Assembly: GCA_963805625.1 (NCBI GenBank) | Contig: CAWDVE010000019.1 | Location: 128,001-192,000 of the forward strand | Direction: 5' to 3' | Source: an uncultured Candidatus Rokubacteria bacterium | Lineage (GTDB): Bacteria; Methylomirabilota; Methylomirabilia; Rokubacteriales; DASRDR01 | DNA length: 64,000 bases | In this document: piece by piece, positions 25,159-33,332 of the stretch | How positions within the stretch are numbered: position 1 is the first letter of the stretch | How the letters are laid out: each line of letters starts with the position of its first letter | The notes under the pieces: model-generated | What the model was told of the DNA's origin: nothing | What the model saw: only the letters and a program-made list of their open reading frames with translations | Databases searched by the model: none | Made by a program: the position numbers and the translations under genes

Positions 25159-25305
25159 TCACCTCGTCGGTTTCTTCGCATGCTTGAAGAACTGCACTTG
25201 TCGCTCCCGCTTCAGCGCCTCCGCGCGCGTCCGGTAGGGCCCGCCGAGATTGCGCGAGCCATCCTTCGAGTACAGCACGTAACCCTTGGCTGTCTTCTTG
25301 ATCAT
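25159..25305 (-). CDS. small basic hypothetical protein, 48 aa (absent from the ORF track)
   Basis: GGAGG RBS then ATG; MIKKTAKGYVLYSKDGSRNLGGPYRTRAEALKRERQVQFFKHAKKPTR; codon usage looks coding. Confidence 0.75.
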   Translation of the reverse strand: MIKKTAKGYVLYSKDGSRNLGGPYRTRAEALKRERQVQFFKHAKKPTR

Positions 25306-25807
25306 GACTGCCTCCGTCGTCACCCTGGCCCTCGCGCGCCCTCGACATGGTAGAGGTGGCTGTCCCAGTCATCTCTTGGCACGTTGACGGTGTCAAGCTC
25401 CCGCGACTCGGCGCGTGGAACGCCGCGGGCTCCTCGATCTGCGGCGTGCGACCGTGAGACCTGTCCCCAGACTCCGTGACCACCTTGGTTGAGGGTCCGC
25501 GAACTCCTCACCGCCGGGTTCAGCATCTGACCCTGAGCCTTGTCCACCCCCCCGGGACCGAAGGGCGTCGAGATGCTGACCCCGGTTGGCGAGCAATCCG
25601 GCCGCACAGCGCCAGGAGTGGTAGCGGGTTGCCGCGGTGCTCCGACAGGCTGCGATGGACTCTGGCAAGGGCTAGGATCCCGAGAATCGGCGCGATGTCC
25701 GTGGGTCGCGGCCGCTCGGGCTTCCAGAGAGGCCACTTTCCTGCTAAATTTCTATTCCCTGGAGCGCTCGGACGGCCAGGAACGCTGCGGAGTTGCGTGA
25801 CGACATC

Positions 25808-26029
25808 ATGACGGGCAAGGCGATCCAGGACCTCGTCGGGCGGGTGATGATCGACCGGGAGTTTCTTGCCCAGCTCGCCCGCGATCCGGACGTCATCCTC
25901 GCCGGCTACGAGCTCACCGCCGAGGAGCGGGCCGTCATCATGCAGGCCCTCGGGCGCGGGGCGTACGTCTCGGAGGATGAGCGCGCGCACGCCCTCCAGA
26001 ACGCCCTGCTGAAGCGATGGGCCACCTGA
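25808..26029 (+). CDS. NHLP-clan (Os1348/Franean1_4349-like) leader-type small protein, 73 aa
   Basis: IQDLVGRVMIDREFLAQLARDPDVILAGYELTAEE matches the nitrile hydratase-like leader pattern (GR..xD..F......DP...L..Y.LT..E). Confidence 0.75.
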   Translation: MTGKAIQDLVGRVMIDREFLAQLARDPDVILAGYELTAEERAVIMQALGRGAYVSEDERAHALQNALLKRWAT

Positions 26030-26093
26030 TGCGCCACCAAGGCTCCCTGACGGACACGCGGCGTCCGCCGGGCAGGCGCGCGAGGCTGGCCTG

Positions 26094-26594
26094 ATGGAGC
26101 GCCTCCCCGAGATCGACTTTCTCCGCCAGGTGCCACTCTTCCAGGACGTCGAGGAGTCCGTCCTGCGCGAGCTCTGGTTCACCTTCCGCGAGCGGCGTCT
26201 CCGGAAGGGCGATGTGCTCTTCCGCACCGGGGATCCGGGCGAGGAGCTGTTCCTCATCAAGGAGGGCAGCATCGTCGTCTCGAAGCCCGTCACCGGGCGG
26301 ATCGAGCAGGTGCTCGCCCGGCTCGAGCCGGGCGAGGCGTTCGGGGAGATGAGCGTCTTCGGGGACGAGCGCCACCGGTCGGCCACCTGCCAGGCCGACA
26401 TGGACGCCGTGCTCTACAGCCTCGATCGCGACAGCCTGGGCCGCTTCATCGCCGGCAGCCCGGTGACCGCCGCCAAGTTCTTCCAGCACATGGCGCAGGT
26501 GGCCTTCCAGCGGCTCCGCGACTCGACCGACCTGGTCGCCGAGGTCACCCGCTGGGGGCTCGAGGCCACGGGCCTGGACGTCGAGCACAAGTAG
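26094..26594 (+). CDS. stand-alone cyclic nucleotide-binding domain protein (no HTH)
   Basis: FLRQVPLF, GDVLFRTGDPGEELFLIKEG, phosphate-binding cassette FGEMSVFGDERHRSAT. Confidence 0.9.
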   Translation: MERLPEIDFLRQVPLFQDVEESVLRELWFTFRERRLRKGDVLFRTGDPGEELFLIKEGSIVVSKPVTGRIEQVLARLEPGEAFGEMSVFGDERHRSATCQADMDAVLYSLDRDSLGRFIAGSPVTAAKFFQHMAQVAFQRLRDSTDLVAEVTRWGLEATGLDVEHK

Positions 26595-26607
26595 TCCCGC
26601 AATCCCC

Positions 26608-27861
26608 GTGAACGAGGCCGGGAAGAAGACGGTGCAAAGTCGGCCGAAGCGCGCCCGCCTCGAGCTGCTCGTGCGCCGGGCGGACGGGGACGGGTTCGAG
26701 GTCCGCGAGATCCCGAGCGCGGTCGCGTATCTGCAAAGCCGTCCCCAGCGCATCCCCGCCGCGGACTGGGAGATGGCCCGGCTGCCCTACGCGAGGCAGG
26801 GCGTCGTCACCTACGCTCTCAAGAACAGCCGCACCGAGCAGATCATCCAGATCACCGAGGCCGAGAAGTTCCTCTGGGAAGAGATGGACGGGCGAGTGTC
26901 GCTCCAGGAGATCGCCACCGCCTACCTCCTGCGCTACGGCTCCTTCGACTTCGAGATCATCCCGACGCTGATCGTGAAGCTCCTGCGGGCGGACCTCCTG
27001 ACCATGCGCCCGGTCTCCCGCCTCCGCGCCGTCCTCGCCCGCAACCGCCGCAACGCGGCCGCGCGCGCCATGGAAGGGACGCTCCACGCGCTCGAGCGGC
27101 TCACCGTCGCCAGCCGGCGGGCGCACGACGTCTTCGCGCGCGTGTACCGCTACGGCGGCTTCCTCCTCTTCTCGCCGTGGGCCCTGCTGGCGCTGATCCT
27201 CATGGTCGGCCTCGGCGGGTGGAGCGCCGTCCGGATCTGGGCGGAGCTCGGCGAGGTGACCCACGGGCTGGCCCAGCACCCGCTGATCGCCATCCTCCTC
27301 GTGAAGGTCGTCTTCTGGCTCACGGTCATCAACCACCAGGTCATCCATGCCCTCGCCTGCGTGCACTACCGCCGCCGGGTGCGCGAGTTCGGCTTCACGA
27401 TCCTCCACGGCTTCATCCCGACGTTCTACGCCGACGTCACCGACATCTTCATGGCGAGCCGTCGGGCCCGCATCGTCAACGCGGTGGCGGGGCCGCTATT
27501 CCACCTCTTCCTGGGCGCCTTCTGCTTCTGGATCGCGACCATGCTGTCGCCGGGGCTCTTCCAGGGCTTCCTCGCCGCCTCCGCCATCCTGCAGCTCCAG
27601 TCGTTCTTCATCAGCCTCTACCCGTTCTGCTTCCTCGAGATGGACGGCTACCACATCCTGGTGGAGTGGCTCGGCATCCCGACGCTCAACGACGATGCCG
27701 TCCGCTTCGTCCGGGAGTCGCTGTGGGCGCGCCTGCGGAGTCTCGACAGCTTCACCCGGCGCGAGGGGATTTACGTGGCGTACTTCGCGCTGTCGCTGGT
27801 GTCGGTGACGGGCTTCGTGCTGGCGACCGTGTGGCTCCTGGTCCGTGCCGGCACGTCATGA
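26608..27861 (+). CDS. PqqD/RRE-like domain fused to an M50 (site-2 protease-like) membrane domain with HExxH changed to HQVIH
   Basis: ITEAEKFLWEEMDGRVSLQEI (RRE-like winged helix); HQVIHALAC, FYADVTD, AGP, LYPFCFLEMDGYHIL (M50 motifs); multiple TM segments. Confidence 0.8.
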   Translation: MNEAGKKTVQSRPKRARLELLVRRADGDGFEVREIPSAVAYLQSRPQRIPAADWEMARLPYARQGVVTYALKNSRTEQIIQITEAEKFLWEEMDGRVSLQEIATAYLLRYGSFDFEIIPTLIVKLLRADLLTMRPVSRLRAVLARNRRNAAARAMEGTLHALERLTVASRRAHDVFARVYRYGGFLLFSPWALLALILMVGLGGWSAVRIWAELGEVTHGLAQHPLIAILLVKVVFWLTVINHQVIHALACVHYRRRVREFGFTILHGFIPTFYADVTDIFMASRRARIVNAVAGPLFHLFLGAFCFWIATMLSPGLFQGFLAASAILQLQSFFISLYPFCFLEMDGYHILVEWLGIPTLNDDAVRFVRESLWARLRSLDSFTRREGIYVAYFALSLVSVTGFVLATVWLLVRAGTS

Positions 27862-30179: not shown

Positions 30180-31288
30180 CTAGTCCAGCCAGTCCTCGCT
30201 CTTTGAGCTTCCGCGGCAGGTAGGTCTTGGTCAGGTAGCGGAAGTCCTTGTTGGCGAGCGCGTCGAGCTCGTACTTGAGGCCGCTCGCGAGCATCCGCTT
30301 GATCTCCTCCTGCCAGGGCTTCTTCTGGAACCAGCGGTACTTGAGCAGCTCCTTGGCCCGGCCGACGTCCTTGTCGTTGAGCTTGATGCCGACGTTGCGC
30401 GGCAGGCCGTAGGCGTCGGGATCGGCGCTGGAGAGGCCGATGAACTTGGCCTTGGGGATGGCCATGCGCTCGCTCTCGAACGCGAGGTTGATCGAGCCCT
30501 GCTTGACGACCGAGTAGATGTAGTAGCCCCAGGGGTCGTTGTCGACGAGGACGTACACGGGGATCTTGTAGTCCTCGTGCAGGCGGCGGGCCAGGCGGCG
30601 GACGCCGCGGGGCGGCTGGCCGTTGCCGGTCAGGAGCACGCAGTTGTACCGGCGCCAGAACTTGTCCTCCGACAGGCGGTTCCACTGGGTGCCCTTCTCG
30701 ACGAGCAGGACGAAGTCCGCCGTGCAGCGCCGGATCTCGATGTACTCGGGCTCGACGATGGAGGGCACCGAGTAGCCGCCCTTGCCCAGGCGCGCGCAGT
30801 CCACCCGGTCGCCGTCGTCGACCGAGGACGACCGGCCCCACGATGCTGCCGGCGTTCTCGGCGCGCACGTGGAGCTCCTCGCGCAGCGCCGCCAGCGCGA
30901 CCTCGAGGTCCTCGATCAGCGGGTCGGACTCGTTCTGGTCGTCGAAGGTGTTCTCGTGCGAGCCCTTCATCGTGTGCTTGGTGCGGTAGTAGATCTCGCG
31001 GAGCGAGGTCGTGAGGTTCGCCCGCTGCAGCTCGGCCAGGGCGTCGGCCACCAGCACCGTCTGCATGAACTTCTTGGCCATGCCCACGTTGAAGAACGTG
31101 CGCGCCTGCTTGCGCTTGCCCATCTCGATGATGCCGCGCTTCTCGTTGAAGTTGACGTTGGCGAGGCTGCGCACGGGGATCGACAGCGCGGGGTCCCGGC
31201 TCCGCTCGGCGGCGGTGATCACGATGTCGGCCACGCCGACCAGCTTCTTCTCGACCGGCCCGATCTTCTTCGGCGTCGCTCCGGCCAT
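30180..31288 (-). CDS. top6A: DNA topoisomerase VI subunit A (frameshifted at about 30825 and 30197)
   Basis: catalytic LREIYY, FDDQNESD, toprim VEKG and DNDPWG, ELDAL; removing two extra bases restores the ending KLKERDWLD-stop. Confidence 0.9.
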
Positions 31289-31296
31289 GGCTCGCT

Positions 31297-33332
31297 CTAT
31301 CGCTTCCTGCGCTTGGTCGACGGAGCCGCGTCGCGCGTGTCGCCTGTCGCTTCGCGTCCGGTCGGCTTGGGCGCTTCGCGCTTGGCCGTCCTGGGCGCTC
31401 ACGCGCTGCCGCCCTGGCCCTGGCGGGCGGCTCCAGGCTCGCGACCTTGCCCTTCCGCCGCGCCGGCGCCGGCCGCTCGGATTCCGCCGCGCCCTCCGCG
31501 TCCGCCGCCGCGCCCGGTCGGCACCGGGCAGCACCGGCGCCTCCCCCTCGGGCCCGTCGGGCGTGACGATGATCGAGTGCGGCAGGCCCTCCGGGCCGCC
31601 TCCGTCGCGGCCCAGGATCTCGTCGGTCCGGCTCCCGCCGGTCCGCTTCATGGCGATCTTCTGGAGCTGGCTCTTGAGCTTCTCCTTGGGCGAGCTTGCC
31701 GCCCTTCAGCCGGGCGCAGGCCTCGACGACCTCCTCGATGTAGAGCTCGAAGATGTTGCGCCGGCGGAACTCGCTCTTGGCCCGCTCGCGCCGCCGCAGG
31801 AAGACGCCGAGCCGGCGCCCGCACTCCTGGAGCGCGAGCTTGATCTCCTTGCGGATCTCGTCGTAGTCGGCGATCGCTTCCTTGGACTCGCTGGTGAACG
31901 GCACCCAGACCGAGGCCATGTGGACGAAGATCACCATCGGGCCCGGCCGGCAGCGCGCCCCGGGACTGGGACACGCCGTAGTTCCGCCAGGCGGTCTCGA
32001 GCACGGCCTTGAAGGTCGCGCAGGCCGACTGCTGGTAGAGCAGCGGGACGCGGTTGGCGTAGCGGATGACGCGGGCCAGCTCGCCGTCGTCCTCCCGCTC
32101 CTCGCCCTCGGCGAGCGGCACCGCGCGGGCTGCGTGGGCGCGCCGCCGCCTGCTCCGGCCCCTTGCCGAAGGCCAGCCCCGCCTCGATGACGAACGGATT
32201 GCCGCGGTACACCGCCGGCGGGCGGGTCACCGCGGTGTAGAACTCGCCCTTGATCTGCTTGTACAGGCCGTGGAGGATCGCCTTCTCGCCGATGGGCGAG
32301 ATGCAGCTCGACGGCGGCGCCATGATCTTGGTCGTCTGGATGGCCTTGTAGAGCGCCTCGGCGTCCTCGCCGTGGATGTTGCGCGGCCGCGCGTTCGGCG
32401 ACAGCTTGGCCGTCCGGCAGATCTCCGAGCGCGACGGCGGGGAGACCCGGCTGAAGTCGCCGGCGAGGAATCCCGCGAGCGCAGTGGCTCCGCGTGTCCT
32501 GGAGCATGCGCAGGAGGATGCCGAACTCGATGCCGTAGGGATGCGGCTTGATCTCGCGGGGCTGGGGCGGCAGCTCGTGGATCGTCCGCGGGTACTCGCG
32601 AGTCTCCCCCTCGGGCGTGTGGTAGACGAGCGCCACGTGCGGGTTGGCGATGGCCGTCTGCTCGAGGTACTCGTCCACCGAGGCCCGGCCCCGCTGGTAG
32701 CGCCCCTCGATCTCGAGCGTCACCTGGGTGCCGCGGTGGCTCTCCCAGTCGATCTTCTTGTTCTCGAAGATCCGCGGCTCGTTCTTCTTGGTGTCGATCT
32801 GCACCTCGAAGTAGTGGGCCGGGGAGCGGGCGCTGGTGCGCGAGGTGATCTGGACCGGCTTCCCGGTCGTGAGCTGAGCGTACATGCCGGCCGCGGAGAT
32901 GCCGATCCCCTGCTGGCCCCGGCTCATGCGCAGCCGGTGGAACTTCGAGCCGTAGAGGAGCTTGGCGAAGATCGGCGGGATCTGGTGGCGGACGATGCCG
33001 GGGCCGTTGTCGATGACGGTGACGCGGAACCGCGTCGCCTGGCTGGCGGGGGGCGGCGGCGACCCGTTGCTCGGCACGACCTCGATCTTGACCGCGACGT
33101 CGGGGAGGATGCCGGCCTCCTCGGCCGCGTCGAGGGCGTTGTCCACCGCCTCCTTGACGCAGGTGAGGAGGGCCTTGCGCGGGCTGTCGAAGCCGAGGAG
33201 GTGCCGGTTCTTGGTGAAGAACTCGGAGACGGAGATCTCGCGCTGGCGGGCGCCCATCTCGACGGCGGAGACGCCGGGCTTCGGTGGCGGCGGGGGCGTC
33301 CCGGTCTGGGCCAGCGCCTGCGCGTTAGACAT
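31297..33332 (-). CDS. top6B: DNA topoisomerase VI subunit B (several frameshifts)
   Basis: QREISVSEFF, KEAVDNALDA, DNGPGI, LLYGSKFH, SRGQQGIG GHKL motifs, KPHPYG, RYANRVPLLY, VPFTSESKEA spread over several frames; end inferred. Confidence 0.9.

Follow-up and report, generated by a model that had tools for sequence, protein, structure and literature searches.

What does a bacterium do with a site-2 protease (S2P) that lacks its catalytic glutamate and is kept beside a cyclic-nucleotide sensor and a small protein resembling a peptide leader? The question is raised by a locus in a 64,000-nucleotide window of an uncultured Candidatus Rokubacteria bacterium (contig CAWDVE010000019.1 of assembly GCA_963805625.1, forward-strand positions 128,001 to 192,000; the window means this whole stretch, and coordinates count from its first letter). 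Three genes there encode, in order, a 73-aa small protein, a protein binding cyclic nucleoside monophosphates (cNMP) and a membrane protein in which a RiPP recognition element (RRE; RiPP, ribosomally synthesised and post-translationally modified peptide) is joined to an M50 metalloprotease domain. All three open reading frames (ORFs) run in the same direction, with gaps of 64 nt (small/cNMP) and 13 nt (cNMP/M50), and the tight, co-oriented arrangement described in an earlier note on this DNA is confirmed by ORF coordinates and domain matches. Judging from sequences and models, we give an even chance to the reading that this trio is a cNMP-switched membrane trap or scaffold, derived from a peptide-processing module, which would hold the small protein uncut. 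The argument draws on the following features:

25808-26029, plus strand: small-protein gene (73 aa), an ORF whose helical product is of the Os1348/Frankia_peptide type (LigA-like, NHLP clan), with a conserved C-terminus K/R-R-x-A-T
26094-26594, plus strand: gene of the stand-alone cNMP-binding protein (166 aa), without a helix-turn-helix (HTH), from ORF and domain match
26343-26387, plus strand: phosphate-binding cassette (PBC) of that protein, G84-E85 ... R95-S-A-T98, its Arg kept in 104/104 scored glutamate-less loci
26553-26567, plus strand: WGLEA motif at the C-terminus of the cNMP protein, from alignment, a putative docking element
26608-27861, plus strand: gene of the RRE-M50 membrane protein (417 aa), with a site-2 protease fold in which Gln replaces the catalytic Glu, from ORF, profile and model
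26656-26715, plus strand: beta-hairpin near the N-terminus, LELLVR...FEVREI (residues 17-36), characteristic of the stand-alone clade, a putative docking site
26767-26988, plus strand: RRE/PqqD-like domain of three strands and three helices (residues 54-127), from model and Foldseek
27334-27348, plus strand: HQVIH (residues 243-247), with both zinc-binding His and a Gln (CAG) where the catalytic Glu would stand, from sequence
27643-27645, plus strand: Asp346 (EMDGY), the third zinc ligand, from alignment

The 417-aa protein matches Pfam weakly (PqqD E 0.13, M50 E 0.013) and the daptide leader peptidase family NF041824 at E 9e-23 with 81 bits, far below the cut-off of 300. Its AlphaFold model (81 sequences; mean predicted local distance difference test score, pLDDT, 88.8) has a hairpin at the N-terminus, a domain of three strands and three helices, and a membrane part made of helices. 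Foldseek, in a search without any match at E 0.001, ranked the M. jannaschii S2P 3b4r first (prob 1.00, E 2.8e-3), so that the three-helix catalytic core fold of S2Ps is present, and the RRE of TbiB1 (5v1v) fifth (prob 1.00, template modelling (TM) score by target 0.71, root-mean-square deviation (rmsd) 3.0 Å); SpoIVFB (8vjl) was a further fold match (prob 0.96). The motif HExxH with its catalytic Glu is not found in the window protein, which reads HQVIH; both His and the Asp are kept, and D346-G347, an LDG-type motif, is invariant in 81/81 aligned proteins. Gln occupies the position at all 99 Rokubacterial-type loci classified and is always encoded by CAG. The Glu of the S2P motif activates the catalytic water, and mutating this motif lowers S2P activity (PMC10202637; here and below, cited papers stand for the part of their text available to us). 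Since the Glu is missing, this established chemistry leads us to infer that the RRE-M50 protein is catalytically dead. The name pseudoprotease, given in the earlier note, would suit a protein that lacks the Glu across its lineage; its RRE fold is matched by the model.

The 166-aa protein is a single-domain match to PF00027 (E 3e-21, residues 34-120, 75.5 bits against a cut-off of 27.5). Its cassette motifs are GEMS at 84-87 and RSAT at 95-98, with G84, E85 and R95 all present. A C-terminal HTH of the CRP/FNR type is absent, the CRP model being matched only at positions 20-137 of 214, and the claim of a stand-alone sensor with an intact cassette and no HTH is borne out by these three results. 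The W, G and A of its WGLEA motif are invariant in 25/25 aligned orthologues, and the motif is missing from 25/25 fused proteins.

These fused proteins are relatives of the RRE-M50 protein. From 150 representatives, 57, mostly long, were chosen and scanned for domains; cNMP domains stand in the same chain as RRE-M50 in 25 of these 57, some together with FHA or AhpC domains, so cNMP-RRE-M50 fusions, to which the earlier note had pointed as a check, do exist among long or selected relatives. Apparent cNMP-M50 fusions at two further loci (L022, L027) were rejected, as their N-termini are off-frame translations resulting from a frameshift in the cNMP gene of G013 and an ORF-caller artefact in G002. 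The stand-alone clade, of about 400 aa, has an N-terminal LELL(I/V)R hairpin that is absent in 25/25 cNMP-fused relatives, and distant RRE-M50 relatives have HExxH. In a quick tree of 95 rows (Shimodaira-Hasegawa-like approximate likelihood ratio test, SH-aLRT, as sole support; midpoint root) the stand-alone clade is recovered at 99% and HE is its general state. Proteins with HQ (support 100) and with HV/HT (99) form separate subclades in an unresolved fork with one HE row. The clade sister to ours has Val or Thr at this position, P0159 represents a further independent loss in which both His are gone too, and the tree has at least two losses of the Glu. From GAG or GAA-type Glu codons, CAG and GTN can each be reached in one step, which would fit separate HQ and HV losses. 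A scan of viral contigs with the fused relatives gave no relatives among 73 pattern matches, and a plasmid search gave partial matches only, daptide MpaP being among the best.

The small protein falls just short of the Os1348 model NF038399 (39.8 bits, cut-off 40) and stays below the cut-off of Frankia_peptide, PF14407 (26.9 bits, cut-off 48; E 5.8e-6); its orthologues exceed both cut-offs in 3/3 scanned sister loci with an intact protease. It has neither Cys nor GG, the double-glycine site, and is single-copy, strongly conserved and helical up to its end, without a variable core. Its helical model (pLDDT 82.8) gives weak matches only, among them the C-terminal domain of DesB (prob 0.6) and SonA, a borosin precursor (Z 5.0, rmsd 3.2, 50 aligned), and fold searches were weak overall, with a best Z of 5.7 to unrelated helical bundles. 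A C-terminal Thr is found in 42/42 HQ-locus proteins caught by pattern. The tail (window 26012-26029 and orthologues) follows basic-x-A-(T/S/A), appearing as KRWAT, RRVAT, RRAT or RKAAT/S/A. In form it is similar to the C-terminal degrons of ClpX, to pseudo-substrate motifs of kinases and to the R-x-A-T in the cNMP cassette. Conserved Trp prenylation of this protein was considered and dismissed, since W, V and R all occur at the residue across Rokubacteriales. The LigA-like fold class also includes non-precursor subunits such as LigA, and regulatory subunits (PMC12353581), so that "leader" denotes a resemblance. Of the earlier description as an NHLP/Os1348-type leader without a core, the likeness to Os1348/Frankia_peptide and the lack of Cys and GG hold, and the word leader is reduced to that resemblance.

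The genome of the window has five NF038399 matches, four of them outside the trio: two were set aside as LigA-like by translation and context, one is unassigned, and the last is a genuine second gene of the Os1348 family (66.8 bits, above the cut-off; L071:5379-7741, that is G000 contig C16, about 5.4-7.7 kb). This second gene is followed by a stand-alone cNMP-domain gene and then by an AI-2E family transporter gene, a layout of small protein, cNMP protein and membrane protein like that of the trio with another membrane partner.

Are the three genes a unit, and is the unit maintained? The M50 protein was searched against 200 genomes of the phylum at least 80% complete and matched in 127. It was found in 115 of the 127 genomes of family f2 (two matches partial or weak), almost all full-length and single-copy, in 7 of 9 genomes of the window's genus besides its own, in 1 of 2 genomes of two small families of the order and, weakly, in 3 of 55 genomes of the remaining families. 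Among 41 relatives, 26 genomes have both the small and the M50 gene, side by side, and in 15 neither was found (M50 E below 1e-86, small gene E below 1e-13; these genomes are kin and not independent); G022 gave only a weak M50 match, to a long ORF. Because of this co-presence (26/41) and co-absence (15/41), the grouping of the trio is beyond chance. A total of 122 loci were examined, 42 from genomes (with some duplicates, and some genomes fetched twice) and 80 from metagenomes, which are not independent. Of these, 99 are HQ loci, and both partners accompany the M50 gene at 87/87 of those with at least 1.1 kb upstream. Even the order can change, as in G024, where the small gene lies between the other two (cNMP-small-M50). 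The neighbourhood conservation proposed as a check is thereby found, the trio being kept as a unit. Its flanks, judged from translations at 43 loci, differ between genera, an amidase-like gene being the commonest neighbour. In several f2 genera (loci L034-L038, L041) the genes downstream of the trio, named from their translations, are amidase-like, DAHP-synthase-like, thrS-like and infC-like, a neighbourhood that suggests an old core-chromosome position.

All three genes are also under purifying selection. Pairwise dN/dS (ratio of non-synonymous to synonymous substitution rates) against the window, from ungapped matches at 72% identity or more, was 0.13-0.44 for the small gene (7 pairs), 0.15-0.34 for the cNMP gene (24) and 0.14-0.37 for the M50 gene (23), in 54 comparisons. 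Lineage-wide decay is excluded, and the decayed RiPP locus that the earlier note had named as a possible refutation is contradicted by these values, well below 1, and by wide full-length retention.

Where, then, are the enzymes expected of a RiPP locus? No RiPP enzyme or exporter was seen among the gene calls around the trio (by translations; 8 nearby ORFs were scanned with hidden Markov models), which agrees with the earlier statement that no radical SAM, YcaO, LanM or exporter gene lies nearby, and at the 43 loci none of the recurring gene clusters is a modifying enzyme or an exporter. The sister loci tell more of the origin. Among the best 80 of 524 metagenome relatives, six, from two tree branches, have an intact HExxH. 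In 6/6 a Frankia_peptide/Os1348-type small gene lies on the opposite strand, divergently, and an orthologous stand-alone cNMP gene with the tail WG(L/I)(E/D)A lies downstream. Beside the small gene, 5/6 encode a 517-620-aa protein with the motif PPDxDxLG, and the contig of the sixth ends there. In L080 this protein is class II terpene-cyclase/prenyltransferase-like (Atlas 0.93 to SQHop_cyclase_C/prenyltransferase clusters); L078 and L079 have an extra protein with a trans-isoprenyl diphosphate synthase (trans-IDS) fold (TM 0.76 to polyprenyl transferase), and L078, L079 and L081 an adjacent membrane adenylate/guanylate cyclase. In RiPPs, such folds carry out prenylation and cyclisation at Trp (PMC13290415, section 2.4); the aligned small proteins of the sister loci have no Trp and no Cys. 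A search of the PDB by sequence with the cyclase-like protein gave no matches. Nor was any similarity detected between the trans-IDS-like protein and the N-terminal half of the cyclase-like proteins, which leaves a prenyltransferase-cyclase fusion without support. In the window's own genome the cyclase-like family has no match (only a canonical squalene-hopene cyclase) and neither terpene-type enzyme has a homologue; in 135 genomes of the phylum, with 10 candidates scored per genome, the cyclase-like enzyme had no full-length match and 17 short C-terminal ones.

The trio probably descends from an active module with HExxH that included a terpene-cyclase/prenyltransferase-like enzyme and an adenylate cyclase. 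Because 5/6 intact-protease loci adjoin such a terpene-type gene, "enzyme-less", as the earlier note had it, describes what looks like a derived state; the term holds for Rokubacteriales, where no modifying enzyme is conserved beside the trio.

The sister loci contain further genes of interest in their own right. Five of them (L078:3713-8012, L079, L080:106-1968, L081:2-2569 and L083:1-1761) are candidate peptide-prenylation/cyclisation clusters, divergent from the intact RRE-M50 gene. L081 has a WelO5-type halogenase gene, and in L080, L082 and L083 an Rce1-like CAAX protease gene follows the cNMP gene. A few kb from the intact-protease trio, L078:12118-13062 and L079:10607-12357 encode a protein with an N-terminal Os1348-like domain; in L079 a multinuclear non-haem iron-dependent oxidase (MNIO) gene of the MbnB/TglH type lies beside it.

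The catalytic Glu and the PBC Arg follow a reciprocal pattern. Every one of the 104 glutamate-less loci that could be scored has the Arg (HQ 91, HV 13), the 6 intact-protease loci all lack it, and 12 of the 122 loci were not scorable; most fused RRE-M50-cNMP proteins retain both residues. This suggests, by sequence comparison and from few independent events, that once split the module kept either proteolysis or nucleotide sensing. Taken further, an ancestral cNMP-gated RRE-site-2-protease for a leader-only peptide might have split into two complementary systems. In the first, the protease was kept and the Arg lost, and terpene-type enzymes acting with a Trp-less, Cys-less peptide would make an undescribed class of lipidated RiPP or of protein lipidation. 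In the second, near-core in Rokubacteriales, cNMP sensing was kept, and a dead intramembrane metalloprotease trapping an unmodified small protein would be a new kind of cAMP/cGMP effector. We regard this two-way split as possible, on the doubtful side.

For the trio of the window, the trap reading would work as follows. The RRE-M50 protein, with its zinc ligands kept and Gln for Glu, would be catalytically dead. The stand-alone cNMP protein would take the place of the fused cNMP domains of the relatives by docking on the cytoplasmic N-terminal part of the M50 protein, with the WGLEA tail and the LELLVR hairpin as probable contacts. The small protein would be bound by the RRE and the zinc cleft, and cAMP or cGMP, supplied by some of the many cyclases of the genome (40 cyclase-domain matches), would alter its capture or release.

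Several observations weigh against this. The M50 gene was found in 0/6 genomes of other genera of the window's own family, and no output gene (regulator, enzyme or transporter) is conserved in the operon across the 43 loci. The quick tree leaves open whether HQ and HV arose once or twice. Because the PBC Arg is absent in 6/6 intact-protease loci, the conserved link between the cNMP protein and the M50 protein need not involve a nucleotide. Finally, in the HVxxH metagenome clade (one cluster member is named Candidatus Binatia) the cNMP gene is directly upstream of the M50 gene in 11/11 scorable loci and the small gene lies within 3.5 kb in 0/11, so the small protein is possibly dispensable; that whole genomes lack its gene cannot be concluded from the HV contigs. 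The co-occurrence of the three genes, whose lack the earlier note had named as a refutation, is seen at all scorable HQ and HE loci, and the small gene is not an obligate neighbour.

Could the small protein instead be a true precursor? In an orphan RiPP or export module it would be modified or cut by enzymes encoded elsewhere, with the dead RRE-M50 protein as a membrane chaperone or escort tuned by the cNMP protein. In favour of this are the sister loci, with a class II cyclase-like gene in all five with room for it and a trans-IDS-fold gene in two, the prenylation and cyclisation of RiPPs by such folds (PMC13290415), the daptide leader peptidase as closest NCBIfam family, whose substrates end in Thr like the small proteins here, and six further PqqD matches over cut-off and one YcaO in the own genome. 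However, that YcaO is on another contig with a TfuA-like gene, no homologue of either terpene-type enzyme was found in the genome and no full-length cyclase-like match in the 135 phylum genomes (10 candidates scored per genome), and no NHLP peptidase-ABC exporter exceeds its cut-off (TIGR03796, best 334 of 853 bits, peptidase part unmatched). The model of daptide MpaB, the only daptide enzyme searched genome-wide, gave no matches (the control was also silent). Moreover, the small protein is conserved, single-copy and helical to its end, with no variable core and no conserved Trp. We consider an orphan module unlikely.

Slightly less probable still is a two-component membrane receptor, made of the cNMP protein bound to the dead M50 protein, in which the small protein is only an accessory or structural (LigA-like) subunit and not the switched ligand. 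The presence of the cNMP gene beside M50 in every clade scored and the missing small gene at 11/11 HV loci fit such a receptor, as do the regulatory subunits among LigA-like domains (PMC12353581) and the second Os1348-type gene that precedes a stand-alone cNMP gene and an AI-2E transporter gene. Against it, the RRE fold is kept and well modelled, and every scorable HQ and HE locus has kept the small gene, as has G024 despite its rearrangement; moreover, the limit of the HV contigs given above takes weight from their missing small gene.

We find it improbable that the protein is a still-active cNMP-regulated intramembrane protease, cleaving the small protein or another substrate slowly by non-canonical chemistry. 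All three zinc ligands and the DG motif are conserved, and Gln, always CAG, is the sole substitution in Rokubacteriales. Nonetheless, Val and Thr at the same position in the sister clade and the loss of both His in P0159 fit lost chemistry and not a replacement base, and mutating this motif lowers S2P activity (PMC10202637). A decaying RiPP-cluster remnant without current function is very improbable, since the lost Glu and enzymes, with frameshifts in the cNMP gene of G013 and in one copy out of two in G004, are set against retention in 115/127 f2 genomes, nearly always full-length and single-copy, and dN/dS well below 1 for all three genes.

As for expression, scans for promoters and terminators found none of either. 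Parts of the genes are covered by contigs of four RNA libraries; these stem mostly from relatives (<95% identity) and are no evidence of transcription. The RNA runs contained only 5-8% of the sequence words.

Around the trio, a short basic ORF (about 48-54 aa; window 25159-25323, minus strand) is divergent from it and has no Pfam or NCBIfam match. At 30196-32927 on the minus strand, genes resembling those for subunits A and B of topoisomerase VI are broken up over several frames when compared with the genes of a close relative, with at least four frame changes in B and one in A, probably assembly indels. In the same genome, the 12.4-kb contig C28 duplicates the end of the M50 gene and the region downstream at 89-99.9% identity (against C19 155739-163114) and is probably a strain haplotype in the assembly.

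What would the trap reading mean? Rokubacteriales genomes like this one have dozens of class III cyclase domains, and here only about 10 cNMP-domain matches to the query face 40 class III cyclase-domain matches; a cNMP module that is near-core and single-copy is a candidate for the main effector. If true, a natural site-2 protease with Glu changed to Gln throughout a lineage would be a rare intramembrane metallo-pseudoprotease; a 2024 review of pseudopeptidases does not mention M50, S2P or intramembrane in its available text (PMC11266112). The Gln protein would also offer structural studies of RRE-M50 proteins a ready-made substrate trap, and the intact-protease sister loci offer an apparently undescribed peptide-prenylation/cyclisation cluster together with matched active controls.

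A Pfam comment on PF14407 reportedly connects the family with cyclases and with signalling by cyclic nucleotides in Chloroflexi, so part of the cNMP link may already have been published. According to PMC8939145, the family stems from Iyer et al. 2009. Our literature search found no published description of the trio; Iyer et al. 2009 and Hubrich et al. 2024, with supplements, may bear on its novelty.

Among known systems, the Os1348/Frankia_peptide family (NF038399, PF14407; PMC7726476, PMC12353581) resembles the small protein, which scores near the NF038399 cut-off, and Os1348 likewise lacks the usual motifs of TOMM (thiazole/oxazole-modified microcin) precursors. Os1348 adjoins predicted modifying genes and efflux transporters (PMC7726476), whereas none is found here. 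Compared with an NHLP (proteusin/TOMM) cluster, the locus has no GG, no modifiable core and no TIGR03796 exporter over cut-off; cyclic nucleotides and M50 are not mentioned in the available text of the NHLP paper (PMC2887384). ComQ-ComX, ChrPC and NctPC (PMC13290415) are comparable to the sister loci, where trans-IDS-like and class II cyclase-like folds accompany a small protein that is LigA-like, but their enzymes act on Trp, the aligned sister small proteins lack Trp and Cys, and no such enzymes were found in the window's lineage.

On the protease side, group III site-2 proteases with a CBS domain, and SpoIVFB with BofA/SpoIVFA, are likewise M50 proteins controlled by an added domain or partners (PMC10202637), but they are active proteases on sigma factors, with no RRE and no cNMP domain. 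The uncharacterised RRE-M50-cNMP fusions ("putative peptide zinc metalloprotease protein" by JGI) have the same domains in one chain; they differ in having an intact HExxH and neither the LELLVR hairpin nor the WGLEA tail, whereas the system here is split and glutamate-less. Closest is daptide MpaP/DapP (NF041824; 10.1101/2023.03.08.531785), in which an RRE is also N-terminal to an intramembrane site-2 protease and a neighbouring short ORF ends in Thr. In contrast to daptide clusters, the protein here reaches 81 of 300 bits, lacks the catalytic Glu and has a cNMP partner, no DUF-RRE (MpaB), decarboxylase, aminotransferase or methyltransferase is conserved beside the trio at the 43 loci, and the small protein, LigA-like and 73 aa long, lacks the ELExMEAP motif. 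The trio is therefore not a daptide system, despite its daptide-like peptidase arm, but a conserved, new variation on RRE-site-2-protease modules.

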